DNA from: an uncultured Desulfohalobiaceae bacterium
GTDB lineage: Bacteria; Desulfobacterota; Desulfovibrionia; Desulfovibrionales; Desulfothermaceae
Length of the DNA: 64,000 nucleotides
Assembly (NCBI GenBank): GCA_964573115.1
Contig: CAZNIP010000004.1
Coordinates: 1,190 to 65,189 of the forward strand
Direction: 5' to 3'
Below, in pieces: positions 1,327 to 41,802 of this stretch. The number at the start of each line of letters is the position of its first letter. Within the stretch, counting starts at the first letter, position 1. The notes under the pieces were generated by a model. That model searched no databases. It was not told the origin of the DNA and saw nothing but the letters and a program-made list of their open reading frames with translations. Both the position numbers and the translations under genes were made by a program.

Positions 1327-1342
1327 TGGCATTGATATTGCT
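1327..1342 (+). promoter_or_regulatory. sigma-54 (-24/-12) promoter candidate for the tusA/dsrE-like cluster
   Basis: TGGCATtgataTTGCT matches TGGCAC-N5-TTGCW with the correct spacing. It lies in the divergent region next to an enhancer-binding-protein gene. The caveat is that it sits about 270 nt upstream of the first convincing CDS (1615). Confidence 0.6.
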
Positions 1343-1614: not shown

Positions 1615-1863
1615 ATGACCGGATGCGGAGGACATCGTCTCGATTTGAAAGGTCTGGTGAGCCCTTTTGTCCATCTCAAGGTCATACAGCAGGTTCAAGA
1701 GCTCAACCCGGGGGACTCGCTGCATCTCGAGCATATCGACCCCGAGACCATCCACGACCTCATGGCCATTCTGAAGCACTACCCTCTTGAGCTGGGCCCG
1801 GTTACGGAAAGGGAAGGCTCCTGCGGGCTGCAAATCACCAAGAACACATCAACACCCTTGTAA
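1615..1863 (+). CDS. TusA/SirA-fold small protein, non-canonical (Ser replaces the CPxP cysteine)
   Basis: 82 aa. DLKGLVSPFVHLKV aligns with the TusA motif D-x-x-G-L-x-C-P-x-P but has S instead of C. An AGGAG RBS lies 8 nt upstream. The gene is directly followed by a canonical tusA. Confidence 0.6.
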   Translation: MTGCGGHRLDLKGLVSPFVHLKVIQQVQELNPGDSLHLEHIDPETIHDLMAILKHYPLELGPVTEREGSCGLQITKNTSTPL

Positions 1864-1878
1864 CAACGGAGGACAACC

Positions 1879-2124
1879 ATGGACGTTCAAAGCATTCAAG
1901 CCGACCAGGTTCTGGACACCAGCGGATTGAGCTGCCCCATGCCCCTGCTCAAGACCAAGAAAGTGCTCAAGACCATGTCTGCTGGTCAGGTCCTGGAAAT
2001 CATCGGAACAGACCCGGGATCCAAGAATGACATTCCTGAATACTGCAACAAGGGAAATGCTGAGTTCCTCGGCTTCGTGGACGAGGAAGGGGGCCGGACC
2101 CGCTACTTTGTCAAAGTCACCTGA
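1879..2124 (+). CDS. tusA: TusA-family sulfur carrier protein
   Basis: 81 aa with DTSGLSCPMPLLKTKK, the canonical GLxCPxP active-site motif. A GGAGGA RBS is present. Confidence 0.85.
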   Translation: MDVQSIQADQVLDTSGLSCPMPLLKTKKVLKTMSAGQVLEIIGTDPGSKNDIPEYCNKGNAEFLGFVDEEGGRTRYFVKVT

Positions 2125-2142
2125 GCTTTCAGGAGAAGAAAG

Positions 2143-2430
2143 ATGAAATCAATCATCGTGCTCATCAAAGATCCGGAGCAGCAGTACGAGGGCCTGAGAA
2201 CGAGTCTTGGGGCCCTGTTGGAGATGGCCTCGGTGTCCATGGTCGTCCTGAACCACGAAGTGGCCGACATGGATGAGGCCTACAGCGAAAACATGGAGTT
2301 CCTGGATGAAATGGAAGGGGAACGGTTCTCCAACCACCAGGCCAATGTGGACAAGTATGGGTTTCAGCCCATCACCATGGCCGAACTGGGCCGCAAGGTG
2401 AGAGAAGCGGATATCGTCATTCCTTTCTGA
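2143..2430 (+). CDS. DsrE/DsrF (TusC/D)-fold-like small protein, no obvious catalytic Cys
   Basis: 95 aa beginning MKSIIVLIKDPEQQYEGLRTSLGALLE..., the size and N-terminal beta-alpha pattern typical of the DsrEFH family. It sits between tusA and a DsrE-like gene. The assignment rests on pattern recognition only. Confidence 0.5.
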   Translation: MKSIIVLIKDPEQQYEGLRTSLGALLEMASVSMVVLNHEVADMDEAYSENMEFLDEMEGERFSNHQANVDKYGFQPITMAELGRKVREADIVIPF

Positions 2431-2442
2431 TGGAGGAGAACT

Positions 2443-2613
2443 ATGGATGTGCTGCATGTGTGTCGCACCGAACCGGACGAAACCGTGTCGACGCTCATTG
2501 ACGAAGTGTCCGGGCCGGAGGCGGTGACCCTGGACCTCTTCAAGGAGGACGTGGACTGGAATGAGGTCGTGGACGCCATCTTCAAGGCGGACAAAGTGAT
2601 CAGCTGGTGGTGA
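2443..2613 (+). CDS. 56-aa small protein in the sulfur-relay cluster (DsrH/TusB-like position)
   Basis: Below the ORF-track size cutoff and found by hand. A GGAGGAG RBS precedes ATG 2443. The product is MDVLHVCRTEPDETVSTLIDEVSGPEAVTLDLFKEDVDWNEVVDAIFKADKVISWW, with stop TGA at 2611-2613. It is tightly packed between neighbouring genes. Confidence 0.4.
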   Translation: MDVLHVCRTEPDETVSTLIDEVSGPEAVTLDLFKEDVDWNEVVDAIFKADKVISWW

Positions 2614-2668
2614 ACACTGCCAGCCTGGATGGCCTCAGGGAAACCTTTAACCAGGCAGGACAGCGACA

Positions 2669-2977
2669 ATGGCTCAATTACTCGGCATCATGGTCAGTTC
2701 GGACAAGCACCTGGACTATGTGGTCAACCTCACTCGGGCAGCCCATGCTCAGGGACACCAGGTCAAGGTCTTCTTCACCGGCAGATCGGTCCTGCTGACC
2801 CAGGAAGAGGATTTCAAGCAGCTGGTGGGCAAGGCCCTGCTCTATGTCTGCGACGTGAGCTTCCGGGCCAACGGCCTGGAAGGCAAAGAGGTCCCGGGGG
2901 TGGGGTTCAAGGAGTTCGTGACCCAGGCCCGCAATGCGGAGATGCTCGAGGAGTGCAACCGCTACCTGGTGCTTTGA
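2669..2977 (+). CDS. DsrE-like protein with candidate active-site cysteine
   Basis: 102 aa. The opening MAQLLGIMVSSDKHLDYVVNLTRAA... and LLYVCDVSFRANGL resemble the DsrE/TusD Cys loop. Confidence 0.6.
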   Translation: MAQLLGIMVSSDKHLDYVVNLTRAAHAQGHQVKVFFTGRSVLLTQEEDFKQLVGKALLYVCDVSFRANGLEGKEVPGVGFKEFVTQARNAEMLEECNRYLVL

Positions 2978-3027
2978 AAGCCGACCCGGGCCCTGGCCTG
3001 GATGACGGAAGAAGCAAGGGAGGTGAC

Positions 3028-3501
3028 ATGAGGGCCAGGGAGATCATGGACACAACTTTTGAAACCCTGCGCCCGGACAACACTGTTGCCGAGGCGGTGC
3101 AGCGGTTTTCCGCGGTCAGCAGCACCCTGGGCCGGAAGATGTTCGGGCTCATGGTCACGGACGGCGAAGAGCGGCTTGTGGGCATGCTCTCCATGTACGA
3201 CATCCTCCTGTTCATTCAGCCCAAGCATGTCCATATCTGGGGTGAAATGGACGATCTGGAGCCGACTGCGCTCTTTGACGAACTCCTGGGCAAGGTCAAG
3301 AACATTCACGTCGGGGACATCATGACCACCGACGTGGTGACCATTCACCCCGAAACCCACGTTCTGCTCATCGTCGACCTGATGCTCAAAAAGCACATCC
3401 GGCGCCTGCCCGTGGTGGACGGGGACAGCGTGGTGGGCATCGTCTATGTCTCGGATGTCTTCTATCAGCTCATGGGCAGGATCGTTGAACCCCACTCCTG
3501 A
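3028..3501 (+). CDS. CBS-domain pair protein
   Basis: MRAREIMDTTFETLRPDNTVAEAV...VGDIMTTDVVTIHPETHVLLIVDLMLKKHIRRLPVVDGDSVVGIV shows two CBS repeats. A GGGAGG RBS precedes ATG 3028. The longer track ORF from 2629 overlaps the dsrE-like gene and is rejected. Confidence 0.8.
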   Translation: MRAREIMDTTFETLRPDNTVAEAVQRFSAVSSTLGRKMFGLMVTDGEERLVGMLSMYDILLFIQPKHVHIWGEMDDLEPTALFDELLGKVKNIHVGDIMTTDVVTIHPETHVLLIVDLMLKKHIRRLPVVDGDSVVGIVYVSDVFYQLMGRIVEPHS

Positions 3502-3518
3502 CCACAGAGGGCCGGGCT

Positions 3519-4409
3519 ATGGTCGTCATCAACAGGAAAAGCGTCCTCAGCGGCATCCTGGTGCAGGAGGTCATGCGCAGGCAGGTCGTCTCCCTGAGTC
3601 TGGAAGCCAGCATCAAGAAAGGCATCAACGCCTTGATCAAGTACAAGGTCAATGCCGTGCTCGTCACCGACCAGGGCGGGCAGCCCCAGGGGGTGGTCAC
3701 GGGAACCGACCTCATGTCCGCATTTTACGCCGGACTGCCCCTGGAGATGGAGCTGGAGAACATCCTCTCCAGCCCTCCCCTGAGCTGTTTCCCGGACGAT
3801 GTCCTGGAAGACGGTCTCGACCTGATGAAAGAGCACCTGGTGCATCAGGTCTACGTTCAGGGAGAGCAGCCCCGGAGGATCGTCGGCTTCCTGGCCTACT
3901 CCGACATCGTGGGCCTTTTGTACCGGACCTGCTGGGCCTGCAGGCGCAACCTCCACAAGTCCAGAGATGGTCAGAAGGACGGCGGCGGGACCAGACCCCT
4001 TCGGGTTGAGGAGGTCATGACCCGGGGGGTGGCCTCGTCCCGGACCGACCAGAGCCTGGACCAGGTCATCGAGACCCTGTCCGAAAACCGTTTCGGCGCG
4101 GTTCTGCTGCAAAATGACCAGGCCATGGCTCAAGGGGTGGTTTCCAAAACCGACCTGGTCCTGGCCTATGCCCACGGGCTCAGCCTGGGCACAAAGGCTG
4201 AGCAGATCATGAGCTCCCCAGTGCTGACCTGCGGCCAGTCCGACCTCTTGACCACGGCCCTGCAGAAAATGCTCCTCTGGGACACACGGCGGATCTTCAT
4301 CGCCCAGGACGACTCCCCTTCCATTGTCGGCGTTCTGTCCCTGTCCGATGCGGCCAGATTCCGCTCCGGCTCCTGTCTGGCCTGCACAGCCGGCAGGCTG
4401 ATGGCCTGA
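3519..4409 (+). CDS. four-CBS-domain protein with Cys-rich inserts
   Basis: 296 aa with repeated (V/I)M..xVV(S/T)... CBS signatures. It also carries CWACRRN and a C-terminal SGSCLACTAG motif. Confidence 0.8.
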   Translation: MVVINRKSVLSGILVQEVMRRQVVSLSLEASIKKGINALIKYKVNAVLVTDQGGQPQGVVTGTDLMSAFYAGLPLEMELENILSSPPLSCFPDDVLEDGLDLMKEHLVHQVYVQGEQPRRIVGFLAYSDIVGLLYRTCWACRRNLHKSRDGQKDGGGTRPLRVEEVMTRGVASSRTDQSLDQVIETLSENRFGAVLLQNDQAMAQGVVSKTDLVLAYAHGLSLGTKAEQIMSSPVLTCGQSDLLTTALQKMLLWDTRRIFIAQDDSPSIVGVLSLSDAARFRSGSCLACTAGRLMA

Positions 4410-4439
4410 GCCTGACGGGCTGCGCCCCTTGAAAGCGCG

Positions 4440-6254
4440 TCACTTGCCTCTCAGACGCACTGGGCACCCCTCCGCCTTTCCCTGTCTGAGCTTTCGGAGG
4501 CTCAGGGCGAAGTCGTCATACACGGGGTCGATGTACTGATCATGGCAGGCCAGGCAGGGGCCCGGCCTGAGAATGGCCTCGAGCTCGGCCCGGGTCCAGG
4601 GTCGCCGGTCTGGCCTGGAGGCTGTGTGCAGCCGGGTTCCGTTGAGGCTGCCAAAGGCCTCGGGCGGGACATCCAGGCCAAAACCAGACCTCCTTGAATC
4701 GTACAGGGGATCGAAAGAGACCCCTTCCGGGCCAGTGAGCAGGTGCCCCTCCCCCAGGCCCAGGGCCTTGGGGTCCAGATGGCATTCAGCGCAGGTCCTG
4801 GCCGAGGGCTGGGTGGTGTGGGGGTCAAAGGTGGTCATGGCCGGAATGGTCTTCGAGGCCTCGGGCTGATGCCGGCCCTGCCGGTCGAAGACCGAGACGA
4901 AGACCTGGCAGGGGGCAAAAGGAACCACCTCTGCCCCGTCCACCCCGAGAATCGGTTGGGTCAGGCGCATGTAGGAACGGCCCTCGTTCCAGTGCCCCCT
5001 GGTCTCCTGGCCGGACAGCTTGTCCAACTGGACCTCGTCCTTTCTGTATTCCAGGTGACAGCCGTAGCACTGGGGCATGAGCCTGCTGTGGCAGGCCTGG
5101 CAGCTGAGCCGTTCGTGGCCCGGCAGGTTGTGGTGGGGTTGGGACAGGTCAGTGGACTCCATGAAAATCGGCTTCCCGTCCAGCTTGCGGAACAGGACCG
5201 CCCGGCCGTCAATGGAGCGCAGGTGGTACAGGGGGGCGGATCGCGGAGAATAGGCGATCCTGGCCCCCTTGATCCCGGGCACGGCCCGGTTCAGGCCGGC
5301 CAGGGTCACAGCCAGGCCGTCCCCGGGCCGGACAGCCTCGAACTCCGGGGCATGGCACATCTCGCAGCTGATTTCGGTCTGCTCCTCCATATACTCATGG
5401 GTCTGCCCGTCGCCCATGATCTCCAGATGGGTATGGCAGTCGATGCAGGTCAGGCCCAGATCAAAGTGGACATCGGCCGGCCCCTGGATGAAGTAGCGCC
5501 CCCCTGAGAGCCTCCTGGTCCCAGGGGCCCCCCGCACGTAGGGTGTGCCGTACCCTTCCGACTCGAACCTGCCCTGATAGGACAGACCCTGCCTGGCTGA
5601 ACGGTTGTGACAGCGCAGGCAGTTGTCAGCCGGGACCCTGACCGAGAGCCGGGCATGATCGAAGGTCATCAGGGTCGGATCGTCCGCGGTGTCGCCTTTG
5701 CCGACCACATGGCAGGCCGAGCACCCCCCGCCCCGCTGGCCGATCTCCCCTTCACCTTCCCGGGGCTTCCAGAGGTGGCAGGAGGCGCACATCTTGGCGA
5801 ACTGATCCTCGGCCAGACTGAGCCTGGCCGGATCCTCGAGCATCCGGGGCACATCCCGGGGCGCGGCCGCAAGCTGGCCATCGGTTTCCCAGTGATAGGA
5901 GAGGGTGTTCAAAATACCCTTGTTCGTGGCCATGATCGACGACTTGACCCTGGGCACGATCTCAGGGTGGCACTCGGCGCGGCCGCAGGTTTGCCTGGCG
6001 AAGTGAAGGTCCCCGGGGTTGATGACCATCCCGGCGTGGGCCCTCTCCTTGTCCAGAGAGCTGGGATTGCCCAGGTGGCAGACCGCGCATCCCAGGGCCG
6101 AGACCGGGTGGGACGGGTCGGGGTCGCTGACCTCAGGGTGGCAGACCAGGCAACCCTCCTGGTAGGGCTCTTCGGGCCTGGGCCGGAGCATGTCCTGGAC
6201 CATGACCACCGCCCCCAGAAGGACGAAGCTCAGGAGCAGAAGGGACCCCTTCAC
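4440..6254 (-). CDS. periplasmic multihaem c-type cytochrome
   Basis: 604 aa with an N-terminal signal/TM segment. I counted 11 CxxCH motifs (CLVCH, CAVCH, CASCH, CSACH, CLRCH, CIDCH, CEMCH, CQACH, CYGCH, CAECH, CLACH) plus one CxxxxCH (CGRAECH). Confidence 0.9.
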   Translation of the reverse strand: MKGSLLLLSFVLLGAVVMVQDMLRPRPEEPYQEGCLVCHPEVSDPDPSHPVSALGCAVCHLGNPSSLDKERAHAGMVINPGDLHFARQTCGRAECHPEIVPRVKSSIMATNKGILNTLSYHWETDGQLAAAPRDVPRMLEDPARLSLAEDQFAKMCASCHLWKPREGEGEIGQRGGGCSACHVVGKGDTADDPTLMTFDHARLSVRVPADNCLRCHNRSARQGLSYQGRFESEGYGTPYVRGAPGTRRLSGGRYFIQGPADVHFDLGLTCIDCHTHLEIMGDGQTHEYMEEQTEISCEMCHAPEFEAVRPGDGLAVTLAGLNRAVPGIKGARIAYSPRSAPLYHLRSIDGRAVLFRKLDGKPIFMESTDLSQPHHNLPGHERLSCQACHSRLMPQCYGCHLEYRKDEVQLDKLSGQETRGHWNEGRSYMRLTQPILGVDGAEVVPFAPCQVFVSVFDRQGRHQPEASKTIPAMTTFDPHTTQPSARTCAECHLDPKALGLGEGHLLTGPEGVSFDPLYDSRRSGFGLDVPPEAFGSLNGTRLHTASRPDRRPWTRAELEAILRPGPCLACHDQYIDPVYDDFALSLRKLRQGKAEGCPVRLRGK

Positions 6255-6255
6255 G

Positions 6256-7158
6256 TCAAACCCCTCTCTGAAGGAGGACCAGACCGGTGAGCGCAGCGTA
6301 GACGCCCAGGGATCCCAAAAAGGTCAGCCTGGCAGCCTGCTCCGCCCTGCCCGACATCAAGGGCAGGCCAAGAAAGAGGGCTGCGGCGCAGGCCGGGAGC
6401 ACCACCCCGGCCCACAGCGGAGGCAGGTGCTTGAGCATCTCCTGGAGTCCGAGGAAGAACCAGGGCCCGGAGGCCTCATGAATCTCGGCCTCCGGAGGCA
6501 GAGCCAGGGGCATGGGAATCATGATGGCCCCCAGGGCGCAGACCAGGAGCGCCACAGTCATGTAACGGACTCGGGGGAGCCAGGACCGGATATGGTTCTT
6601 CAGCAGCACCAGGAGGAGAAGCGGCAGCAGCCAGCAGTGCCAGAGGTATGGCGGAAAAAAGAAGTCCTGGCCGCTCCCGATGAGGAGGCGGGCCAGAGTT
6701 TCCCCCGCCAGGGGGATGGAGCTGGAGAGATTCTGCAGGATGGTGCCGGCCAGGATCCCCTCCTTGTCCCCTTTGAGCACAAAGCCGGTGAACAGGAGAA
6801 GCAGGGCCAGGGCCGAAGCCAGCCAGAGACGGGCCCATTCAGTCAGGGAAACCACCCGGTGGTTGCGGCGCAGGAAGTGGTCCAGGACATGGAGCAGGGT
6901 CAGGACCACGCAGGCCTCTCCGGACAGGAAATGGAGCCTTCGAAAGAACCACCCGAAGGGGATGCGGGTGGTGATGCTCTCCACCCGGGCAAAGACATCC
7001 CCCCAGGGGTGAAACTGAAAGGCCAGAATGAGCCCGGACCCGAGACAGAAGATGCCTGTGGCCAGGGCCATGCGCGGCAGTACCGGGCTGATCCGCCTGT
7101 GATCCTTGATCAAGGCTGCTGCTTTGCCAAAGACAGAACGGGTATGAAATGTCATCAC
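6256..7158 (-). CDS. cytochrome b subunit (bc1/b6-type four-helix di-haem domain)
   Basis: 300 aa and polytopic. RRLHFLSGEACVVLTLLHVLDHF provides the helix B His pair, and WHCWLLPLLLLVLLKNH provides a second His pair 14 residues apart. It lies adjacent to the Rieske gene. Confidence 0.8.
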   Translation of the reverse strand: MMTFHTRSVFGKAAALIKDHRRISPVLPRMALATGIFCLGSGLILAFQFHPWGDVFARVESITTRIPFGWFFRRLHFLSGEACVVLTLLHVLDHFLRRNHRVVSLTEWARLWLASALALLLLFTGFVLKGDKEGILAGTILQNLSSSIPLAGETLARLLIGSGQDFFFPPYLWHCWLLPLLLLVLLKNHIRSWLPRVRYMTVALLVCALGAIMIPMPLALPPEAEIHEASGPWFFLGLQEMLKHLPPLWAGVVLPACAAALFLGLPLMSGRAEQAARLTFLGSLGVYAALTGLVLLQRGV

Positions 7159-7303: not shown

Positions 7304-7720
7304 TCAAGTTTCATACGAGCCCCTGACGGGCAGAATGACCTCCAGGTCACCACTGTCAAGCCTTTGCGATTCAAGGACGGCCAGATCGGACCTGGCCGGG
7401 CCCCTGAGGCGCTTGCCCTGCAGGTCGTAGGCGCTCCCGTGGCAGGGGCAGACAAACTCTTTTTCAGCCTCATTGAAGTGGACCCAGCATCCCAGGTGGG
7501 TGCACCTGGCGGACAGGGCCTGCAGGGATTCCCCCTTGGGAATCAGGATGGCCCCGTCCCGACTGGCGAAGGGAGACAGCTCCGGGGCGGGGAACACGAC
7601 CCGGCGGACGGTGCGCTCCTGCCAGGTGACAAAGCGCAGGATGGGCCAGCCCCAGAAAGCCAGCCCGGCAGCCCAGACGGTCGAGCCCAGGAGCCATTGC
7701 AGGAAGCGCTGCCTGGTCAT
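7304..7720 (-). CDS. Rieske [2Fe-2S] protein
   Basis: Carries CTHLGC...CPCHGS cluster-binding boxes. The N-terminus MTRQRFLQWLLGSTVWAAGLAF is Tat-like and hydrophobic. ATG 7720 overlaps the upstream stop (ATGA at 7717-7720). The longer track ORF reaching 8089 is rejected. Confidence 0.9.
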   Translation of the reverse strand: MTRQRFLQWLLGSTVWAAGLAFWGWPILRFVTWQERTVRRVVFPAPELSPFASRDGAILIPKGESLQALSARCTHLGCWVHFNEAEKEFVCPCHGSAYDLQGKRLRGPARSDLAVLESQRLDSGDLEVILPVRGSYET

Positions 7721-9597
7721 GAGTCGTCTTCCCTCTGCTGCAAGCGGTTCGAACGGGCTCGCGGGACCTGTTCGGCGGCCAGGCCTTTCGAACCCGGGGT
7801 CTGCTTCAGGCCGGGGCCCAGGGACTCCAGGAGGCCTTGCTTCTGTTTGAAAAACCTTTGTCCGTATCCGGAGCCGGGTTCCAGGAGCCGATCCCGTTCC
7901 CGGGGGTTCAAAAGCCGCATCCCGGGCACGGCCGGGGGGCTGGGGCGCAGCAGATCGAAATCCGGCCCGGCCTCGAGCTCCCCGTCCCAGGCCAGGCCAA
8001 GCCCCGCTGCAACGGGGTTCCGATGGCAGGTTTCGCAGGGCCGGCCCTGACTGCCGGTGGTGTGGGGAACAGAAGGCATGAAGGCCCATCCAGGGGCTTG
8101 CCCGTCGCCCCGAACGGGGATCTCGCTGTCCAGGAGCACCCTGCCTGCTCGATCCACATAGGAGACCTGATACTGGTGCAGAGGCCTCATCAGGCTGATG
8201 CGATTCTGATGGTCAACTCCCAGGACCCTGTTTTCCCACCTCCTGAACCGGTAGCCTTTGAGCCACAGCCCTGTCGTTGTTTCTCCAGTGAGGAGGTCCC
8301 GGGAGGTCGGTGAACCTTCCGGATCTGCCAGGAGCCTGTTCAGTTCGGTCAACAGCCCGGGGTCGCCCTGTCTGGTCAGGTACGTCCAGACGCGAAAATC
8401 CCCGCCGTCCTGTCGCTGCAGGCTCAACCCGTAGTCATGGCCGATCCACCTGGCATGGCAGCTGCTGCAGCGCAGCCGTGAATGGACTGCGGGGTCGTGA
8501 GAGGGGCTCGTGGCACGGAAAATCGGCAGCAGCCTGTTCCTGCCCTGGCGGTCCTGGAAAGACCATGTTCCGTTCCGGTTCTGGAGACCCTCCACCTCGG
8601 GGTTCGGTCCGGCGTCGGAGAACCCGCCGTGGCAGTCCTGGCAGGTTGTACCCGGACTGTCCAGGGCAAAGGCGGCTCGGTGCCCATCCCCCATGACATC
8701 CTGCTTGTGGTGGCAGTCCAGGCAGCTCATGCCCCTTTCCTGATGGACGTCCCTGGCCAGGACATGAAAGGCCCCCTGCGGCATGTCGCGGACCGGGACC
8801 TCCCCCAAAACGGCTTCCTGGAAAAAGGAGTCGTAGTCCCGCTCAAACAGGCCGTGGCCATCCGAGCCAATGGAGTTGGGGCGATGGCACTTCAGGCATT
8901 GGGCGTCAGGAATGTCGGCTGTCAGGCCATGAACCCTGGGGTGGCCCGCGCTGGAGCGGTCGATGGACTGGTCGTTCCCGCGATAGCGGCCGTCAGCCGC
9001 ATACGGCACGTGGCAGGCGGCGCAACCCCTGGCCCTGTAGGGCGGGTTCCCTGCAGCACCCACCGCACTGACGTGGCACTGCAGACACTTGCGCCGCAGG
9101 AGGTCGTCCACCAGGTCCTCGGGTTCTGCCGGGTCTGGAGGACTGTGCGGAAGGGGCTCGAGGGCCCCTCCGGCCCCGTAAACAGCGGGGACAGCCGAGG
9201 CCTGGGCCCCGAAAAGGAACCTGGTCTGGTTGATCATTCCAGCCAGGGTGAGGTGCAGGCTGGTCTGAAACGTCTCCACGTCGTCCTGGTGGCACTGGCC
9301 GCAGACCTGTTCGGCCGAGGCCATCCGCGAAGGGTTTTCAAGGATCGGCGAATGATCGTCCAGCGGCCGGCCGCGATCCTGGCGAAGGAGATGGCAGACC
9401 GGGCAGCCGAAAGTGTGTCCGGAGCCTGGGGATTCGACACCTCGATGGCAGGACAGGCAATCCTGAAAGTCGTGCTCCGGGCTCTTCAGACAGCCTGTCC
9501 CGGCGGCGAGAAGGGTCAGGAGCAGAAGCCCTGCCCGAATGACACCTGATTGGAGAACGGTCTCACACCTCCACGACGAATCGTTCCGTTTCCTCAT
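7717..9597 (-). CDS. multihaem c-type cytochrome, probable lipoprotein
   Basis: 626 aa with an LLAAGTGC lipobox-like signal. It has 10 CxxCH motifs (CLSCH, CPVCH, CGQCH, CLQCH, CAACH, CLKCH, CLDCH, CQDCH, CSSCH, CETCH). It shares blocks with 4440-6254, for example DCH(H/T)..(D/E)(V/I)MGDG. Confidence 0.9.
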   Translation of the reverse strand: MRKRNDSSWRCETVLQSGVIRAGLLLLTLLAAGTGCLKSPEHDFQDCLSCHRGVESPGSGHTFGCPVCHLLRQDRGRPLDDHSPILENPSRMASAEQVCGQCHQDDVETFQTSLHLTLAGMINQTRFLFGAQASAVPAVYGAGGALEPLPHSPPDPAEPEDLVDDLLRRKCLQCHVSAVGAAGNPPYRARGCAACHVPYAADGRYRGNDQSIDRSSAGHPRVHGLTADIPDAQCLKCHRPNSIGSDGHGLFERDYDSFFQEAVLGEVPVRDMPQGAFHVLARDVHQERGMSCLDCHHKQDVMGDGHRAAFALDSPGTTCQDCHGGFSDAGPNPEVEGLQNRNGTWSFQDRQGRNRLLPIFRATSPSHDPAVHSRLRCSSCHARWIGHDYGLSLQRQDGGDFRVWTYLTRQGDPGLLTELNRLLADPEGSPTSRDLLTGETTTGLWLKGYRFRRWENRVLGVDHQNRISLMRPLHQYQVSYVDRAGRVLLDSEIPVRGDGQAPGWAFMPSVPHTTGSQGRPCETCHRNPVAAGLGLAWDGELEAGPDFDLLRPSPPAVPGMRLLNPRERDRLLEPGSGYGQRFFKQKQGLLESLGPGLKQTPGSKGLAAEQVPRARSNRLQQREDDS

Positions 9598-10759
9598 TCC
9601 AGGTCACCAGCACGTACCAGATCGCCATGAGCAGGGACACGGCCACGATGGTCCCCTGATAGCCGAGAATGTCAGGGAGGAAAACTTCGAAGCCCACAAT
9701 CCGCTGCATCAGCTCGGAAGCATCGATCCAGGCACGGACCAGGGAGTTGGACAGAGCAAAGAAGACCAGGGCGAGCATGAGCTTGACCTGACCCTCAACG
9801 GCCCGCCAGGCCGTCCCGCTGCCGCAGCCGCCGGTGACGAGCATCCCGAAACCGAAGATGAAGCCGCCGATGAGGGCCCCGAACCCGAAGTTGGCCGTCA
9901 CGTACGTGGTTTCCATTCTCAGGCCGACCCACTTCAGGGTGGCGAACCCGAGCATGCTGATCAGAATGCTGACGATGACCGTCCTGGTGACCTCTCCGTC
10001 GCCAGTCATGAACGGCTCCCTGAAGCAGCGGGCAAAGCAGAGCCTGGACCGGTGCAGGACAAAGCCGAAGCCCAGGCCGCAAAGCAGCAGGCCGCCAACG
10101 AAGATGTACCCGTAAAACGTGTACACCTCGGAGGCGATGAAGGCCAGGACGATGAGCGCCGCCCCAATCCAGGGCTGGATTCTCTTCCAGTTGAAGCGTG
10201 ACTGCTTGAGCCTCGGGATGTCGGTTTTCCCGCTCCCAAGAGTGATGTTTTCCATTTCCCAGTACAGGTATTTCAACCCTGCCCAGGCACCGAGCATGAG
10301 CCCGGCCATCATCACGAAGCCGCTCAGGGACAGGGCGCTGATGGCGGTGTAGAACCCACCGACATTGCACCCCCCCGCCAGGGCGGCCCCTGTTCCGAGG
10401 AGCAGTCCCCCCACCACCGCCTTGATGCCCTCCAGAAGGGGCGGGACGCGAATGGCGAACTGACCTGCCAGGAGAGCGGCCGCCAGGGCTCCGACCATCA
10501 GGCCGAGCGTCAGAATGGAGTTCGTGGAGACCAGGGCTGAATAGGGCTGCTCTGCATACATTCCCAGGCTGTAAAAGAACCAGTCCGCCCAGTTGCGCAG
10601 TCCGCCGACAACCCCCCAGGGCCTGTCCCAGGCAAAAGTGATCACGGAGAGGATCCCCACCAGGACCCCGCCGGTCATCATGGGCCACGGCTGGACAAAG
10701 ACCTTGTCCCAGGCCTGCTTGACCACCTTGATGAAGACGCTTGTGTTCTGGCTCATCAT
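9563..10759 (-). CDS. YeeE/YedE-family membrane protein (thiosulfate/sulfur-compound transporter-like)
   Basis: 398 aa and polytopic. Two family-typical Cys loops are present, LAGGCNVGGF and VTGGCGSGTAW. Confidence 0.85.
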   Translation of the reverse strand: MMSQNTSVFIKVVKQAWDKVFVQPWPMMTGGVLVGILSVITFAWDRPWGVVGGLRNWADWFFYSLGMYAEQPYSALVSTNSILTLGLMVGALAAALLAGQFAIRVPPLLEGIKAVVGGLLLGTGAALAGGCNVGGFYTAISALSLSGFVMMAGLMLGAWAGLKYLYWEMENITLGSGKTDIPRLKQSRFNWKRIQPWIGAALIVLAFIASEVYTFYGYIFVGGLLLCGLGFGFVLHRSRLCFARCFREPFMTGDGEVTRTVIVSILISMLGFATLKWVGLRMETTYVTANFGFGALIGGFIFGFGMLVTGGCGSGTAWRAVEGQVKLMLALVFFALSNSLVRAWIDASELMQRIVGFEVFLPDILGYQGTIVAVSLLMAIWYVLVTWNEETERFVVEV

Positions 10760-10771
10760 GCACTCCTTTCC

Positions 10772-12448
10772 TCAGCAGCCCTCGTCTTCTTTTGAAAACA
10801 GCCCGGTCGCCTGTCCTCCGGGTTCAGTGACCGGGACGTCAGGTGCGCCAATGCAGCTTGGGTCGTCTTCAGCGCGATCAGCCAGGGCGAAGACCACGGC
10901 CATGTCGTAGGAGCGCCAGGCCAGCTTCGAGGTCGGGTCGGCCAGAATGGCTTTCCAGAAGAGCTTCTTGGCTTCCTGGTACCTTCGGCGTTCAAAGGCT
11001 GTCTGACCGTGACGGATCATCCTGGCGCAGAGCTCCGAATCCGGGGTGGAGACCTCGATGTCGGTTTCGGCCAGGGTTTCCAGGTCAGCTGTGTCCCCGG
11101 CAAGCTCCACAGTGGTTCCCAGGTAGACCTGCTTGCCCACGATATCGATGTTGTCGTTGTAAAAGCGGGCATCATGCCCGGCCTTCTTGAGCATGTTGTA
11201 GGCCATTTCAGCCCGCATGCCGGTGGCACAGTGGGCGACGATCTCCTTGTTTTCGGGAAGCTCGTTTTGGCGCATCTGAAGCTCGTCCAGAGGAATGTTC
11301 ACGGATGGCGGCAGGGAACCGGCAGCCACTTCATTCGGGGACCGAACATCGAGGATCAGGATGTCTTCGGGGTTCTCCTCAATGATTCTGGCGAACTCAC
11401 CTGTGGAGATCTCTCCCGGCAGAGGCTGGGGTGCGTACGCGATCTTCGACACTGGTGCGCCCTGCTTGACCTCCCTTCCGGAGTCAGCCCAGCCCTGATA
11501 GCCGTCTTCGAGGATCGAGACGTTTTTGTAGCCCCAGGAGCGGATGGTGGTGACAGCAGGCTTGAGCCGATTCAGGTCAGTGGCTGTGGAATAGAGGATG
11601 ATCGGGGCTTCCCGGTCCAGGGGGAACCCGCTTTTCCGGTCAGCAATGTCCTCCAGAGGGATGGACACCGCATCAGGGATGTAGCCCTGACCTGCCTGCC
11701 TGGTATCGATGAGCACGTAGTTGCCTCTCCTCTTCGTCAGGTAGGTCCCGGTGGTCAGGAGGACATTCCCCTTCTTTTTCCACCCCGGGGCGCCGTCGTG
11801 GTAGACTTTCACCCTGGTGTAGCCCCACTGCTCGGCCATCTGGGAGGCCATCGGGCTCAGTGTGCAGTGGTTCCCGCCGCAGTAGAAAACGAGGAGCACA
11901 TCTTTGCTGTCCGGGAGTTCGGAGCGCATGGTGTGCATGGAGCTGAAGGGGATGGACACGGAGGTGGGGATGTGGGCTTCATGAAAGCGAAGCCCGGGTC
12001 TGGAGTCCACGAGCAGGTAAGGCTCCCCAGATTCGCCGGCCACGAGGCGTTCGACGTCTTCTGTGGTGGCCAGCTGCTCTCTGGGAATTTCAATGGGAGG
12101 CATGGTCCAGATTTCATCTGCCAGCAGATCCTCGGTTTGCTGCCGGAGCCTGATTTTGATGGGCACCTTCGGGGCCAGCTCAGCAGCCAGGTTCAGCGTC
12201 GTGGCCTGGTCATACTTGACCATGTGGGTTTCTGGACCCACCTTGACCTGGATGGTTCTGGCCTTTTGGGACCGTTTGACGAAGCTTCCGGCAATAACCC
12301 CCTGTTCCTGCTTGTACTCTCCATGACAGCGCAGACACTGCTTGGACACCATGCTCTGCACCGGACGTTCAGCCCCAGTCGCCGCAAGGCTTGTGACGAT
12401 GAGCAGGCTGGCAACGAGCGGGACACCGATTTTGAATGGCTGATGCAT
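10772..12448 (-). CDS. exported monohaem cytochrome c fused to three rhodanese domains and a C-terminal TPR-like segment
   Basis: Has a signal peptide (MHQPFKIGVPLVASLLIVTSLAATGA) and one CLRCH motif. Rhodanese loops are YCGGNHCTLSP (Cys), YSTATD (no Cys) and AHCATGMRAEM (Cys). I chose ATG 12448, preceded by GGAGG, over the track start at 12481. Confidence 0.85.
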   Translation of the reverse strand: MHQPFKIGVPLVASLLIVTSLAATGAERPVQSMVSKQCLRCHGEYKQEQGVIAGSFVKRSQKARTIQVKVGPETHMVKYDQATTLNLAAELAPKVPIKIRLRQQTEDLLADEIWTMPPIEIPREQLATTEDVERLVAGESGEPYLLVDSRPGLRFHEAHIPTSVSIPFSSMHTMRSELPDSKDVLLVFYCGGNHCTLSPMASQMAEQWGYTRVKVYHDGAPGWKKKGNVLLTTGTYLTKRRGNYVLIDTRQAGQGYIPDAVSIPLEDIADRKSGFPLDREAPIILYSTATDLNRLKPAVTTIRSWGYKNVSILEDGYQGWADSGREVKQGAPVSKIAYAPQPLPGEISTGEFARIIEENPEDILILDVRSPNEVAAGSLPPSVNIPLDELQMRQNELPENKEIVAHCATGMRAEMAYNMLKKAGHDARFYNDNIDIVGKQVYLGTTVELAGDTADLETLAETDIEVSTPDSELCARMIRHGQTAFERRRYQEAKKLFWKAILADPTSKLAWRSYDMAVVFALADRAEDDPSCIGAPDVPVTEPGGQATGLFSKEDEGC

Positions 12449-12496
12449 GTCTTTGACCTCCGGCCTTGGTGTGCTCAACACGTCATTCAGGAATGA

Positions 12497-12512
12497 AGCA
12501 AATACAGGGCCA
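12497..12512 (-). promoter_or_regulatory. sigma-54 (-24/-12) promoter candidate for the cytochrome/rhodanese/YeeE/Rieske operon
   Basis: The reverse strand reads TGGCCCtgtatTTGCT, with GG and GC at canonical spacing, about 50 nt upstream of ATG 12448. An AT-rich tract (12520-12560) lies just upstream. Confidence 0.65.
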
Positions 12513-12819
12513 CATCAAAATGAATAGAACATTCTGAATTTATTTTATATTATGGCATGTCCATCAGAGTCTCTGTTCACGAAGTGTTTCGATGACTGAC
12601 ATTTTGAACTCATGTTCACATTCTTGTTCATGCAGCCTGGAACAGGGGCTGAAAACGCTTCTCGTTCCGCCCTGCTCCGATGATCTGGCCTTTTTTTTGC
12701 TTCAGACCATCAGGAGTCATGGCCCTTGACCATCGCGAGACGCCGGAGGCAGGCATGACCTCCCTGAACGTGACGTCTGAACCAGTTGTATCATGAAAAC
12801 GCCTTGAGGAGAACAAGCC

Positions 12820-13221
12820 ATGCTTGAAATGGAGATGTCGTTTCCCGGAGGAATGCGGGTCGATGCCGAGTTTAAGGGCTTCAGGGTCAGCACGGATCAA
12901 CCCCTGGACGAAGGCGGCCACGGCTCGGCACCCGAGCCGTACGACCTTTTCGTGGCCTCCCTGGCCACCTGTGCCGGGGTCTATGTTGTGTCGTTCTGTC
13001 AGGAGAGGAACATTCCCACACAGGACCTGAAAATGCGGCTGACCGCGGAAAAGAACGACCAGACCAAGCTGTTTGAGAAGATCACCCTGTTCATCACTCT
13101 GCCGGCCGAGTTCCCGGACAGATACGTCCGGGCGGTCCAGAAGGCGGCCGGGCTGTGCACGGTCAAAAGGAGCTTGACCGAGCCTCCGGAATTTGAAACC
13201 GTGATCACAAATGGAGTGTGA
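12820..13221 (+). CDS. OsmC-family peroxiredoxin-like protein
   Basis: 133 aa. GHGSAPEPYDLFVASLATCAGVYVVSF...AAGLCTVKRSL shows the two conserved OsmC/Ohr cysteines. A GAGGAG RBS is present. Confidence 0.85.
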   Translation: MLEMEMSFPGGMRVDAEFKGFRVSTDQPLDEGGHGSAPEPYDLFVASLATCAGVYVVSFCQERNIPTQDLKMRLTAEKNDQTKLFEKITLFITLPAEFPDRYVRAVQKAAGLCTVKRSLTEPPEFETVITNGV

Positions 13222-13343: not shown

Positions 13344-13417
13344 CGGTTCATGAGAGCCGGCGGCCGCGTTGACCAGAGGTGAAAAGCTCAAACCGCATCA
13401 ATGAGGAGGTCGCGCTC

Positions 13418-13780
13418 ATGTCCAAGATGTACTTCATCATCTCCAAAGGCTTTGAAAAGGCCGGCGGGGCTACCCGGGCCATGCAGTTCGCCGCCTTTGC
13501 TGCTGAACAGGGCAGCGAGGTCGAGGTGGCCTTGATCGACGATGCCATCCACTGGGCCCAGATCGGGATGGCCGAAGGGATCCGGGCCTCCACCGGGGAG
13601 CACATGCTGGACATGATCCAGAAACTGGCCGCGGCCAACGGCAAGCTCCTGGTCTGCAAGGCCTGCGCGGACAAGCGCTACATCGGCCCGGACGAGCTCA
13701 TCGACAATGCGGTCATCGCCGGGGCAGGGGAGATCGTCCAAAAGATGTGCGACCCTGAGAACAAGGTCGTCTCCTTTTAG
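13418..13780 (+). CDS. DsrE/DsrF-like family protein
   Basis: MSKMYFIISKGFEKAGGATRAMQFAAFAAEQGSEVEVALIDDAIHW...LLVCKACADKRYI. A GAGGAGG RBS precedes ATG 13418. Confidence 0.7.
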   Translation: MSKMYFIISKGFEKAGGATRAMQFAAFAAEQGSEVEVALIDDAIHWAQIGMAEGIRASTGEHMLDMIQKLAAANGKLLVCKACADKRYIGPDELIDNAVIAGAGEIVQKMCDPENKVVSF

Positions 13781-13837: not shown

Positions 13838-15319
13838 TCATCCTGACCCGGGCTCTGGCTTGAGAGGAATGCCCCACGTCTTCATGCGCTTCCAGACTGC
13901 TGTCCGGCTGATGCCCAGCTGCCTGGCCACCTCTGCCTTGTTCCATTCGTGCTCCTCAAGCAGCTCCAGGAGCCCCTCCTTCTCGATCTTGACCCCTGTC
14001 CGGCGGCCTGTGGACGGGTGCGAACCCCCTTTTTTTCCAGGTCTGCCGCCCGGCCTGCCTCTTTCCCTGACCTCTCCAGGCAGGTCGTTGACCCGGATCG
14101 TGTCCCGGGAGGCCAGGACAAAGGCATGTTCCACAGCGTTCTCCAGCTCCCGGACGTTGCCGGGCCAGTCATAGTCCATGATCAGCCGCATGGCCTGGGG
14201 CTCCATCCCCTTGATGCGCTGACCGGTCTGTTGGTTCTGCTTGGCGATGAAATGGCTGACCAGCAGGGGCAGGTCGTCCCGGCGCTGACGCAGGGGAGGC
14301 AGCTGGATGGGAAAGACCTTGAGCCGATAGTACAGGTCCTGGCGGAAGATCCCCTGGGCCACCAGGGATGCCAGGTCGCGGTGGGTGGCCACGATGACCC
14401 GGATATCGATCTTCCGGGGCCTGGACTCCCCGACCCGCTCCACTTCACGTTCCTGCAGAATACGCAGGAGCTTGACCTGAACGGGCTGACTGAGCTCCCC
14501 GATTTCGTCCAGAAAAATGGAGCCGCCGTGGGCTTCTTCGAAACGGCCCCGCCTGTCCCTGACCGCTCCGGTGAAGGCCCCCTTGACGTGCCCGAAGAGC
14601 TCGCTCTCCAGGAGGGACTCGGTCAAAGCAGAGCAGTTCACGGTCACGAAAGGCTGGTCTGCCTGGTCGCTGTTGTAGTGAATGGCGCTGGCAATGAGCT
14701 CCTTGCCGGTTCCGCTTTCCCCCTGAATGAGGACCGTTGCCCTGCTTGCCGCCGCGGCCCTGACCCTGGAGAAGACCTCCTGCATGGCCTCGCTCTTGCC
14801 CAGGATGTTGGCAAAGCTGTAGTGTTCGGCCAGGAGCCGGCTGGCCTCTTCAGCCTTGTGCCGCGCTCTGTGCAGCTCGGTCATATCGGTCACGGTCTCC
14901 ACAATGCCGATGACCTGGCCATCATCGTCCTTGACCACTCTGGCCTGTTTGATGACCGGGACATCCCGGCCCTCCCGGTGGCGAAGGACGCATTCCCTGG
15001 CTTCAGGGCGCTCACGCTCAAGGATGCCGCACTTGCGGACATCGGCAGGGCAGACCCTGCCGAAGCAGCGGCTGAATCCAAGAATTTCGCAGGATCTGCC
15101 CAGGGCTTCCGAGGAGGCGAAGCCGGTGATCCGTTCCATGGACCTGTTCCAGGAGGTGATTCGGCCCTGGGTGTCCAGGGTGAAGACCCCTTCGGCCATG
15201 GAATCCATGATCTGGTTCAGAAAGCGGACGTTCCAGACCGCATGCGTTGTGTCGGACATGGCCACTCCTTGATCTGCCGGGCATGCTAGGACATCGCCCA
15301 CCGACGAGCGAGTCAGCAC
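13838..15319 (-). CDS. sigma-54-dependent transcriptional activator (PAS + AAA+ + Fis-type HTH)
   Basis: 493 aa with GESGTGKEL, ESELFGHVKGAFTGA and a C-terminal HTH (EVARQLGISRTAVWKRMK). The PAS domain has a Cys-rich stretch CEILGFSRCFGRVCPADVRKC. The start could instead be MSDTTH at 15259. Confidence 0.9.
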   Translation of the reverse strand: MLTRSSVGDVLACPADQGVAMSDTTHAVWNVRFLNQIMDSMAEGVFTLDTQGRITSWNRSMERITGFASSEALGRSCEILGFSRCFGRVCPADVRKCGILERERPEARECVLRHREGRDVPVIKQARVVKDDDGQVIGIVETVTDMTELHRARHKAEEASRLLAEHYSFANILGKSEAMQEVFSRVRAAAASRATVLIQGESGTGKELIASAIHYNSDQADQPFVTVNCSALTESLLESELFGHVKGAFTGAVRDRRGRFEEAHGGSIFLDEIGELSQPVQVKLLRILQEREVERVGESRPRKIDIRVIVATHRDLASLVAQGIFRQDLYYRLKVFPIQLPPLRQRRDDLPLLVSHFIAKQNQQTGQRIKGMEPQAMRLIMDYDWPGNVRELENAVEHAFVLASRDTIRVNDLPGEVRERGRPGGRPGKKGGSHPSTGRRTGVKIEKEGLLELLEEHEWNKAEVARQLGISRTAVWKRMKTWGIPLKPEPGSG

Positions 15320-40566: not shown

Positions 40567-41802
40567 TTGAAGAGCAAAAGTGTCATCATCATCGGCGGTG
40601 GCATTGCCGGTCTGACTGCTGCATGGGAACTGGCCCAGCAGGATGTGGGTGTGCATCTCGTTGAGAAGGGTCATTTCCTGGGAGGTCATGCCATTCACTA
40701 CAACTGCAAGGCCACAGACGTGTGTCAGCAATGCGATGCCTGCACAGTGGAGAAAATGCTCAAAAACGTGGTCTCCGAACCTCGCATCACTGTGCATCTG
40801 GCCTCGAACGTTCAGAGCATCTCAAAGAACACAGGCTTCGCAGTCACCTTGGACAAGAGGGCCCAGTACGCCTCTCCCCGGGAGCAGGAGCACCTGTCGG
40901 CAGCCTATGCCCGCTGCCCTGTCCCTGGAGCCATTCTGCGGGGAAGGTCCATCAACAACTCCCCCCTGTTCGCCCTGGATGAAAGCCTGCTTCCGCAGCT
41001 CAAGGACCAGCTCCCGGACCTCTTCGGACCGGACGGGCTGGATGCGAACAAAGAACCAGCTCAGGAAACCCTCAAGGCCGACGCCGTCATCCTGGCCACA
41101 GGGTTTGAACCATTCCACCCTGAAGACAAACCCACCTACAACTCGGCCTCTCTGAAGAACGTGGTTTCCGCCCTGGACATGGAAAAGATCAAGAAGGAGC
41201 AGGGACACTACGTTCGCCCTTCCGACGGACGGCCTCCGCACAGAGTGGCCTTTATTCAGTGCGTCGGCAGCAGGAATGAGCAGCTCGGACACCTGTGGTG
41301 CTCCCACGTCTGCTGCCCCTACGCCCTGCGCATGGCCGAGGTGATGAAGAAAGACGATTCAGAGACAGACATCACGGTCTTTTACATGGATATTCAAAAC
41401 ATCGGCAGGGACCATCCGTCGTTTTACCAGCAATGCCAGTCAGACTTCCGTTTCGTGCGGAACATCCCGGTGGACATCTACCCCGGGGAGAACGACTCCA
41501 TGCTGGTCAGCTACATGGATGAGAGCGACGAAAAGGTCATCCGCGACCCTTTCGATCTCGTGGTCCTCTCGGTGGGGATCATGCCTGGACAGGACAATGC
41601 CCGGCTGGCCGAAATGGCCGACATTTCCCTGACACCCAATGGGTTCCTTCAGTCCGCAAGCGAGCTTGACACCACCTCCACCGCCGTGGAGGGCATCTTT
41701 GCTGCCGGGACGGCCACAGGGCCAAAGAGCATTGCCGAGAGCATGGTCAATGCCGGGCAGGCCGTGCGCAATACGGTCAAACACTTAGGGGTATCCAAAT
41801 GA
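40567..41802 (+). CDS. HdrA-like FAD-dependent oxidoreductase
   Basis: TTG start 7 nt after AAGGAG. VIIIGGGIAGLTAAWELAQ is the dinucleotide fold. It also has VCQQCDAC, and QCVGSRNEQLGHLWCSHVCC is typical of the HdrA Fe-S region. Confidence 0.75.
   Translation: MKSKSVIIIGGGIAGLTAAWELAQQDVGVHLVEKGHFLGGHAIHYNCKATDVCQQCDACTVEKMLKNVVSEPRITVHLASNVQSISKNTGFAVTLDKRAQYASPREQEHLSAAYARCPVPGAILRGRSINNSPLFALDESLLPQLKDQLPDLFGPDGLDANKEPAQETLKADAVILATGFEPFHPEDKPTYNSASLKNVVSALDMEKIKKEQGHYVRPSDGRPPHRVAFIQCVGSRNEQLGHLWCSHVCCPYALRMAEVMKKDDSETDITVFYMDIQNIGRDHPSFYQQCQSDFRFVRNIPVDIYPGENDSMLVSYMDESDEKVIRDPFDLVVLSVGIMPGQDNARLAEMADISLTPNGFLQSASELDTTSTAVEGIFAAGTATGPKSIAESMVNAGQAVRNTVKHLGVSK

Follow-up and report, generated by a model that had tools for sequence, protein, structure and literature searches.

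Introduction

The chief gap in the understanding of microbial sulfur disproportionation is the route by which elemental sulfur, polysulfide or thiosulfate is taken up and the fate of the electrons, and the same questions stand open for sulfur respiration. The best genomic lead on disproportionation is the YTD cluster, presented in the available parts of two reports as five genes encoding YedE, TusA, a DsrE-like protein, Chp1 and Chp2 (PMC13047784, PMC9676032), and its proteins are induced during thiosulfate disproportionation (PMC9751629). The periplasmic side of this cluster is a blank. In the Sox and Dsr systems, a carrier protein’s flexible C-terminal arm bears a cysteine at its end, and a c-type haem enzyme makes or breaks the S-S bond to it. 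MccSep of the Geobacter ext cluster is a haem- and cysteine/selenocysteine (Cys/Sec)-dependent polysulfide reductase (PMC13510729), and the available part of a 2026 review lists two rhodanese-type proteins, rhodanese-like form 1 (UxxS) and TsoB (UxxxxU), as selenoproteins (PMC13188914). Here, a locus that joins features of these systems is described from a 64,000-nucleotide stretch of DNA, hereafter the window, of an uncultured Desulfohalobiaceae bacterium (assembly GCA_964573115.1, contig CAZNIP010000004.1, positions 1,190 to 65,189 of the forward strand). The leading gene of its sulfur-uptake/cytochrome operon (10772..12448, minus strand, stop codon included) encodes an exported protein with a haem-attachment motif, three rhodanese modules and a C-terminal cysteine arm. 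This protein is a Rosetta-stone fusion that ties together a rhodanese family, a second protein family ending in Glu-Gly-Cys (EGC) and a quinone-linked cytochrome module. The former is a widespread, haem-motif Sec/Cys family annotated merely as “rhodanese-like”, many gene calls of which stop short at the selenocysteine codon; the latter, exported and so far unannotated, has a terminal cysteine that never varies and is encoded upstream of yedE in most YTD clusters. With confidence about evenly divided, the window protein may be a periplasmic sulfane-sulfur oxidoreductase/transferase that depends on haem and Cys/Sec and charges the terminal cysteine of its own arm for YedE, a reading drawn from sequence comparison.

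Gene Call, Export and Domain Organization

The longest open reading frame (ORF) at the locus (10772..12481, minus strand) begins with GTG. The start chosen here is the ATG at 12448, which has GGAGG 8 nt upstream and agrees with the starts of homologs, giving a protein of 558 aa. Its first 26 residues (12371..12448) form a Sec-type signal peptide: the n-region (MHQPFK) is positive, the hydrophobic core spans 17 residues (with Kyte-Doolittle means over 11 residues of up to 2.5), and candidate cleavage sites lie between TGA and E or between SLA and A. All homologs begin with a comparable hydrophobic leader, and some of those without the haem motif possess lipoboxes. Export had been proposed in the original prediction, a first reading of the same DNA, and the preset check of that proposal by hydropathy and cleavage motif recovered the signal peptide. 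The other sequence features named there were likewise found: one CLRCH site, three rhodanese modules with CGGNHC and CATGMR loops and one inactive member, and an EDEGC end.

Rhodanese (PF00581) is the sole Pfam match to the 558-aa protein, in three stretches (E 4.8e-37; 126.9 bits against a cut-off of 22.2), and residues 1-125 and 440-558 match no Pfam model. A search of 5.8 billion proteins yielded 194 relatives, and a set of 174 full-length relatives used for family comparisons comprises 108 haem-type members, which bear the N-terminal extension, and 66 more distant, haem-less members. Residues 440-558 are confined to the closest ~19 relatives, and a short haem form that ends before this tail is present in many Desulfomonile, Nitrospirota, Geobacteraceae and betaproteobacterial genomes. 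Because the short form is so common, the core of haem motif and three rhodanese modules is not the unusual architecture that it was first taken to be.

The Haem Motif and Its OB-Fold Domain

The CLRCH motif for haem c attachment occupies residues 38-42 (12323..12337, minus strand). A CXXCH motif is expected by chance only ~0.003 times in a protein of this size (an estimate from typical Cys and His frequencies), and the equivalents of C38, C41 and H42 are kept in 108/108 relatives that carry the extension; together, these figures argue that the motif did not arise by chance. Some of the 108 have the wider spacings CX3CH or CX4CH, and there too the His comes directly after the second Cys. Since an invariant His is needed for haem c and not for a plain dithiol, haem attachment is favored over a dithiol motif. 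Conservation of CLRCH in orthologs was also a preset check on the original prediction, and all three residues passed through it unchanged. Among the best 120 relatives, ~40 have CXXCH 31-45 residues from the start, and the others keep the next domain without the motif; across the whole comparison set, 66/174 relatives lack CXXCH and retain that domain.

The domain itself had been described as a monohaem cytochrome c, a description that structure prediction does not bear out. AlphaFold2 (AF2) modeling of the N-terminal domain alone (predicted local distance difference test, pLDDT, 89.1) gave two short, motif-bearing helices followed by a six-stranded barrel, an OB-fold at residues ~50-118 (12095..12301, minus strand) that is present in haem-less relatives too. 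The CXXCH motif is thus located on an N-terminal extension of ~20 residues to the barrel. In Foldseek searches of the PDB with this domain, the best compact matches were CusF (2vb2/1zeq), YgiW (1nnx) and RPA, with proteasome OB domains/rings also returned; the CusF match has a TM-score of 0.55 by query length and 0.63-0.70 by target length, at a root-mean-square deviation of 2.5 Å. No cytochrome was among these PDB matches, and Pfam cytochrome models reached E 0.037 at best on the N-terminal part, below cut-off. A class I cytochrome c domain was considered and is ruled out by the OB-barrel fold, which is not the all-alpha cytochrome fold. As modeled, then, the N-terminal domain is a CusF/YgiW-like OB barrel with a haem-attachment extension. 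One further residue, K62, is 95% conserved in haem-type members and is also common in haem-less forms.

Rhodanese Modules and the Cys/Sec Position

Rhodanese module 1 (residues ~125-232; 11753..12076) carries the six-residue loop C190-G-G-N-H-C195 (11864..11881). Module 2 (residues ~236-330; 11459..11743), recognized by an Alr3790 match at 251-324, has no active-site Cys and is inactive, and module 3 (residues ~345-432; 11153..11416, with the best Pfam stretch at 350-431) has the canonical loop C407-A-T-G-M-R412 (11213..11230), all on the minus strand. C190 is kept in 173/174 family members and C407 in 174/174; G410 and R412 of module 3 are nearly invariant.

Position 195 is occupied in the family by either Cys or TGA/Sec. 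A scan with the conserved module 3 peptide (a 14-sequence alignment) collected 80 genomic loci, and an in-frame TGA aligns with Cys195 of the window protein in 59/85 genomic loci, in the context YYCAGFS-TGA-VLSP. A hairpin resembling a selenocysteine insertion sequence (SECIS) begins 15-17 nt after the TGA, with columns 18-24 pairing with 30-36 (numbering starts at the T of TGA). Its pairing reaches 88.6%, compared with at most 49.5% in slid-partner controls, and one of its pairs shows compensatory change, alternating between CG (14), UA (11) and UG (5). Pairing is far weaker in the Cys forms (60% of cells vs 83% in Sec forms); the window, with TGC as codon 195, retains 3/7 pairs. Judged by these alignments, the family is a Sec/Cys family of which the window protein is a Cys form. 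TGA/Sec at position 195 is found in 52/108 haem-type and 2/66 haem-less members, a contrast biased by the way the two sets were collected. Because position 195 closes the loop around Cys190 and is Cys or Sec, the first rhodanese loop is assigned as a redox C-X4-C/U pair, and the occurrence of Sec in many relatives argues that the position is redox-catalytic.

Most short haem-type genomic copies (loci L010-L085; e.g., at 10583 in L010 and 10580 in L014) contain the in-frame TGA, so that databases of called proteins would hold only halves of them and under-count the Sec forms. A second apparent case was seen in a Desulfovermiculus metagenome-assembled genome (MAG; JAXHMO010000017.1, locus L001), where genes called as a 111-aa rhodanese and a 422-aa multihaem cytochrome form one frame (2823..4466, minus strand) broken only by the TGA of LYCA-TGA, the “LYCAU” rhodanese selenoprotein motif. 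The frame points to a fusion of a selenocysteine rhodanese with a multihaem cytochrome c; tblastn found no counterpart of it in the window. The C-termini of the short proteins also differ: haem-type forms end KGxYTIxE, and many haem-less forms (e.g., P0029, P0030, P0032, P0034 and P0043) have Cys for Tyr (DGKCxIxE, CDCEIIRP). This substitution hints at a Cys in the haem-less C-terminal hairpin that may serve as an alternative redox partner.

The Cysteine Arm and Its Stand-Alone Homologs

The C-terminal module (residues 440-558; 10775..11131, minus strand) consists, by AF2 and homology, of a helical domain resembling a single tetratricopeptide repeat (TPR), a Pro/Gly/Glu-rich linker and the ending ...FSKEDEGC, in which Cys558 is the last residue (10775..10777). 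Among the ~19 relatives with this module, the final Gly-Cys is always kept, C474 and C532 can be substituted, and the linker before Gly-Cys varies in length and sequence. A word-indexed search with the tail alone found one fragment only. An exhaustive HMMER search of 1.84 billion representatives with a tail profile returned 317 proteins, many of which are multi-repeat TPR proteins aligned at the repeat only. The top matches are stand-alone proteins of 105-170 aa (E down to ~1e-28) with a signal peptide, a conserved domain (LCAxMIRFG...RGxYLxAK..FxKA..DPxS..AW..YD), a Pro/Ala/Glu-rich linker and a C-terminal (D/E)EGC. They belong to no Pfam or NCBIfam family and give sub-threshold TPR matches only. 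The module is found in other fusions too: in P0140 its partner is a pair of rhodanese domains, in P0228 another three-rhodanese protein.

A metagenome scan gathered 80 loci for the stand-alone proteins. Complete C-termini read DEGC or EEGC in 79/79 cases, and yedE lies directly downstream on the same strand in 61/64 loci with enough DNA, usually followed by TusA and three small proteins. The window tail is, by sequence, a homolog of this exported EGC family that stands upstream of yedE. The TPR-like tail ending in EDEGC noted at the outset was correctly recognized as to its ending, and the view of it as a mere TPR appendage gives way to homology with the EGC family; TPR models match the tail itself only below threshold (E 0.04-0.1).

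One account of the YTD cluster counts three conserved hypothetical proteins, CHP1-3 (PMC12998232), of which one, CHP3, might be this EGC protein.

Operon Structure and Gene Neighborhoods

Thirteen nucleotides downstream of the rhodanese gene lies a gene for a YedE/YeeE-family membrane protein (9563..10759; Sulf_transp, PF04143, 6.9e-52), which scores below cut-off with both the YedE/FdhT and TsuA models. It is followed on the same minus strand by genes for an ExtM-like multihaem cytochrome c with 10 CXXCH motifs (7717..9597), a Rieske [2Fe-2S] protein (7304..7720), a b6/ExtP-like cytochrome b (6256..7158) and a second ExtM-like multihaem cytochrome c with 11 CXXCH motifs and one CX3-4CH (4440..6254), all recognized by profile and, for the cytochromes, motif count. 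The listed start of the first cytochrome overlaps the end of the YedE gene by 35 nt (9563..9597), and its Desulfovermiculus ortholog is shorter by ~100 aa; the protein probably starts downstream of 9597.

The remainder of the YTD cluster (1615..2977, plus strand) converges on this operon and was delineated by tblastn against the Desulfovermiculus cluster, Pfam and ORFs. It comprises genes for a TusA-like protein (1615..1863), TusA (1879..2124), two small proteins (2143..2430 and 2443..2613) and a DsrE-like protein (2669..2977). The window thus holds all five YTD genes: yedE, tusA, a dsrE-like gene and two small conserved genes.

These associations recur in relatives. The long, tailed form has YedE after it in 6/6 distinct loci (L001 and L008 counted once), as it does in the window; TusA and three small proteins are usually present as well. 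Synteny is kept in Desulfovermiculus and other MAGs, and in one locus (L005) all parts are contiguous and co-directional. The Rieske/cytochrome b/multihaem module stands beside the fused haem-type protein in 6/7 loci, or 7/8 with the window, compared with 0/23 loci of the stand-alone tail protein within a flank of ~4.7 kb. Finally, the only conserved neighbors of the short haem-type homologs are lineage-specific housekeeping genes (ffh, trmD, rimM, rplS, etfA, polA and a cinA-like gene), which offer no clue to function.

Proposed Mechanism

The coupling of redox chemistry to sulfur-atom transfer, put forward in the original prediction, gains from the Sec/Cys at position 195 and from the operon of YedE, cytochromes, Rieske protein and cytochrome b; electron transfer is probably linked to the handing of sulfur (or selenium) into the cell. 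Both the function and the direction of transfer are what we infer, and MccSep serves as a precedent for chemistry of this kind. In the proposed mechanism, module 3 would abstract sulfane sulfur from polysulfide, thiosulfate or a related compound as a Cys407 persulfide, and the C190/C195 pair would form or cleave an S-S (or S-Se) bond with the abstracted sulfur. Two electrons would travel one by one through the covalent haem, being given to or taken from the multihaem cytochromes and the Rieske/cytochrome b quinone module; module 2 is a dead spacer. Cys558 on the flexible arm would next receive the sulfur, much as SoxY or DsrC does, and offer it at the periplasmic mouth of YedE, which would deliver it to cytoplasmic TusA and the DsrEFH-like trio. 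The direction could be reductive, with quinol as donor to sulfur (sulfur respiration or disproportionation’s reductive half), or oxidative, with sulfide or polysulfide as donor to quinone.

A more specific version casts the tail and its stand-alone relatives as a hitherto unrecognized periplasmic carrier for YedE and the YTD system, with the cysteine at the tip of its flexible, acidic arm loaded by the haem- and Cys/Sec-dependent rhodanese. The arm would enter the YedE channel for a covalent hand-over to channel cysteines (C131, C241/C245 and C312 in the window YedE) and then to TusA, and the fused form would be wired to the quinone pool through the Rieske/cytochrome b/multihaem module. This version is offered tentatively and is, on balance, doubtful; if true, it would supply the missing entry step and the electron loop of sulfur disproportionation.

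Several points weigh against the proposal of a haem- and Cys/Sec-dependent enzyme loading its own arm for YedE. No distal ligand (His, Met, Cys, Tyr or Lys) specific to the haem type emerged from comparison of the 108 haem-type with the 66 haem-less members, and AF2 confidence is low in the tail linker. The co-occurrence counts were drawn from related genomes, with a flank of only ~4.7 kb for the stand-alone proteins, and because the short forms have no conserved neighbors, the core enzyme needs neither YedE nor the Rieske module. Furthermore, a Rieske/cytochrome b module usually feeds acceptors above the S0/HS- potential, which is awkward for polysulfide reduction; such a donor suits tetrathionate or selenite better than S0.

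Alternative Explanations

One alternative is a selenium (or tellurium) system, and the selenite/Se0 potential does suit a Rieske/cytochrome b donor. Selenite would react with C190/C195 to a selenotrisulfide, for whose reduction the Rieske/cytochrome b/multihaem module would supply electrons by way of the haem, and selenium on Cys558 would pass via YedE to TusA/YedF-like proteins. The neighbors’ best NCBIfam models point the same way: they are the selenium membrane protein YedE/FdhT, at 155 bits, and ExtM and ExtP, both “selenite/tellurite reduction operon” proteins. The operon is also adjoined by OsmC-like and DsrE-like genes of families with seleno-variants. In Geobacter, selenite reduction has been linked to the rhodanese-like ExtH and to the ext cluster, and selenite is turned over by MccSep as well. 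The model scores, however, fall far under their cut-offs (155 vs 350, 187-282 vs 800 and 70 vs 290), the ExtH model is essentially unmatched by the window protein (12.9 vs 200), and the selenoenzyme of the ext cluster is now placed in sulfur respiration. Moreover, the window YedE belongs with TusA and a DsrEFH-like trio, that is, with the YTD arrangement found in sulfur disproportionators and sulfate reducers and induced by thiosulfate disproportionation. A selenium or tellurium role is accordingly considered unlikely.

Two further readings were weighed. An ordinary periplasmic sulfurtransferase of the YnjE/Sud/PspE type, with the haem as a sensory or structural accessory and the tail docking to YedE or a cytochrome without carrying sulfur, would agree with the Foldseek and sequence matches to plain sulfurtransferases (1yt8, YnjE 3ipo/2wlr, PspE/GlpE models), with the existence of haem-less relatives and with the TPR-like repeat, typically an element of protein-protein interaction. 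Sec195 in half of the haem-type members nevertheless speaks for redox catalysis beyond transfer, and an invariant terminal Gly-Cys after a variable linker, in fused and stand-alone proteins alike (79/79 in the latter), is hard to square with pure docking; this alternative is held to be quite improbable. At the N-terminus, the CXXCH might bind no haem and be a CXXC thiol-disulfide or metal site on the CusF-like OB domain, making the protein a redox-thiol or metal-handling rhodanese. It would then be natural that there is neither a cytochrome fold nor a conserved distal ligand, that the closest compact structural neighbor is the Cu(I)/Ag(I) chaperone CusF, that a Pfam cytochrome model reaches 0.037 only and that 66/174 relatives keep the domain and lack the motif. 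A dithiol, on the other hand, does not demand the His that follows the second Cys in 108/108 members, including the CX3CH/CX4CH variants. The protein is exported in a host with many c-type cytochromes, its neighbors carry 10-12 motifs, and Ccm requires just an exported CXXCH. Given also that the motif-bearing fusion co-occurs with the cytochrome/Rieske module, a haem-free site is regarded as very unlikely.

Regulation and Other Features of the Window

Upstream of the operon, on the same strand, is a gene for a PAS/sigma-54 AAA+/HTH activator (13838..15319, minus strand, by profile), which likely regulates the operon; a homolog of it also flanks the cluster in three related loci (L001, L005 and L006). 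A sigma-54-type -24/-12 promoter-like site, TGGCCCTGTATTTGC (12498..12512, minus strand), lies ~50 nt upstream of the ATG. The pattern occurs nine times in the window against 3.1 expected, and a single site is weak evidence. Further such sites were seen on the plus strand at 1327..1341, upstream of the TusA/DsrE-like cluster, and at 12686..12700, upstream of an OsmC-like gene. The arrangement suggests one sigma-54 regulon under the 13838..15319 activator. Scans of the region for sigma-70 promoters found none, and terminator-like matches were at background level only.

The OsmC-like gene (12820..13221) and a DsrE-like gene (13379..13780), both on the plus strand and divergent from the operon, belong to NCBIfam families that also have seleno-variants; the pair is not kept beside the cluster in related loci. 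Two CBS-domain proteins (2629..4409, plus strand) are encoded in the interval that separates the TusA/DsrE-like genes from the end of the cytochrome operon. As listed, the ORF from 2629 shares DNA with the DsrE-like gene, which is read in a different frame, and its real start is probably near 3000. Elsewhere, the window yielded no further sulfur genes (the remainder includes HdrA/MvhD-like, LarA, Pho regulon, ACR3-like and MMPL genes). The HdrA-like/MvhD(VhuD)-like fusion (41799..43448, plus strand) is typical of the electron-bifurcating complexes of sulfate reducers, fits a Desulfohalobiaceae-like host and is unrelated to the rhodanese protein.

Comparison with Known Systems

Both the Sec/Cys rhodanese loop and the YTD cluster were already known. 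Relatives of the window protein have Sec at the Cys195 position followed by xxS (UVLS/URLS), as in the catalogued rhodanese-like form 1 (UxxS). The likeness lies in the loop motif, and the catalogue’s example accession is a possible member of the family. TsoB (NF045694) has Sec at the equivalents of both C190 and C195, and its model matches residues 125-228 of the window protein (E 6e-16), covering the module 1 rhodanese part. The selenoprotein catalogues, in their available parts, describe a Pfam rhodanese domain and a motif, with no mention of a haem motif, OB domain, three modules or Cys-arm tail. Similarly, the available parts of the published YTD descriptions, alongside which the YeeE/YeeD thiosulfate uptake system was set for comparison with the window, include no fusion to a haem-motif rhodanese and no Rieske/cytochrome b module. 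The literature searched gave nothing relevant on haem- or CXXCH-rhodanese fusions, and a haem-tagged OB domain, the EGC family as yedE’s upstream partner, the fusion of the two and the Rieske/cytochrome b link were not found described there.

Three tandem rhodanese modules, some of them active, are also found in E. coli YnjE, which is periplasmic as well, and in P. aeruginosa 1yt8. Full-length Foldseek comparison returned both (2.3e-10 for YnjE 3ipo_B, 3.3e-10 for 2wlr and 4e-14 for 1yt8), with rhodanese matches dominating and the ends uninformative. At 14-20% identity to the window protein, however, they lack the haem motif, OB domain, C-X4-C/U loop and Cys arm, and they occur in a different gene context.

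The Geobacter ext cluster offers a functional parallel. MccSep (GSU2936), as is proposed for the window protein, brings haem c and a Cys/Sec pair to bear on sulfur-sulfur bonds in the periplasm; in contrast to the window protein, MccSep is no rhodanese but a pentahaem cytochrome in which a haem is Cys-ligated. A periplasmic rhodanese, ExtH, is also part of the ext cluster, and the window neighbors resemble ExtM and ExtP; ExtI/J/K/L-like porin-cytochrome genes were not seen around the operon. Assignment of the window protein to ExtH (NF040901) was tried and rejected, given a score of 12.9 bits (E 0.04) against a cut-off of 200 and a leader that ends SLAATGAER, with no lipobox Cys. Ten diverse family members likewise gave no ExtH match at E <= 1e-10.

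The relationship to SoxAX with SoxYZ, and to DsrC, would be one of functional analogy only, in that a haem enzyme makes or breaks S-S bonds to a Cys on a carrier’s C-terminal arm. SoxY combines an Ig-like fold with a GGCGG arm, and DsrC has two Cys ten residues apart (CX10C); neither is related in sequence or fold to the window tail, the helical, TPR-like domain and EGC end of which rule it out as a member of either family. Unlike these carriers, the arm of the window protein ends in (D/E)EGC after a TPR-like helical domain, is fused to its enzyme and is tied to a membrane transporter.

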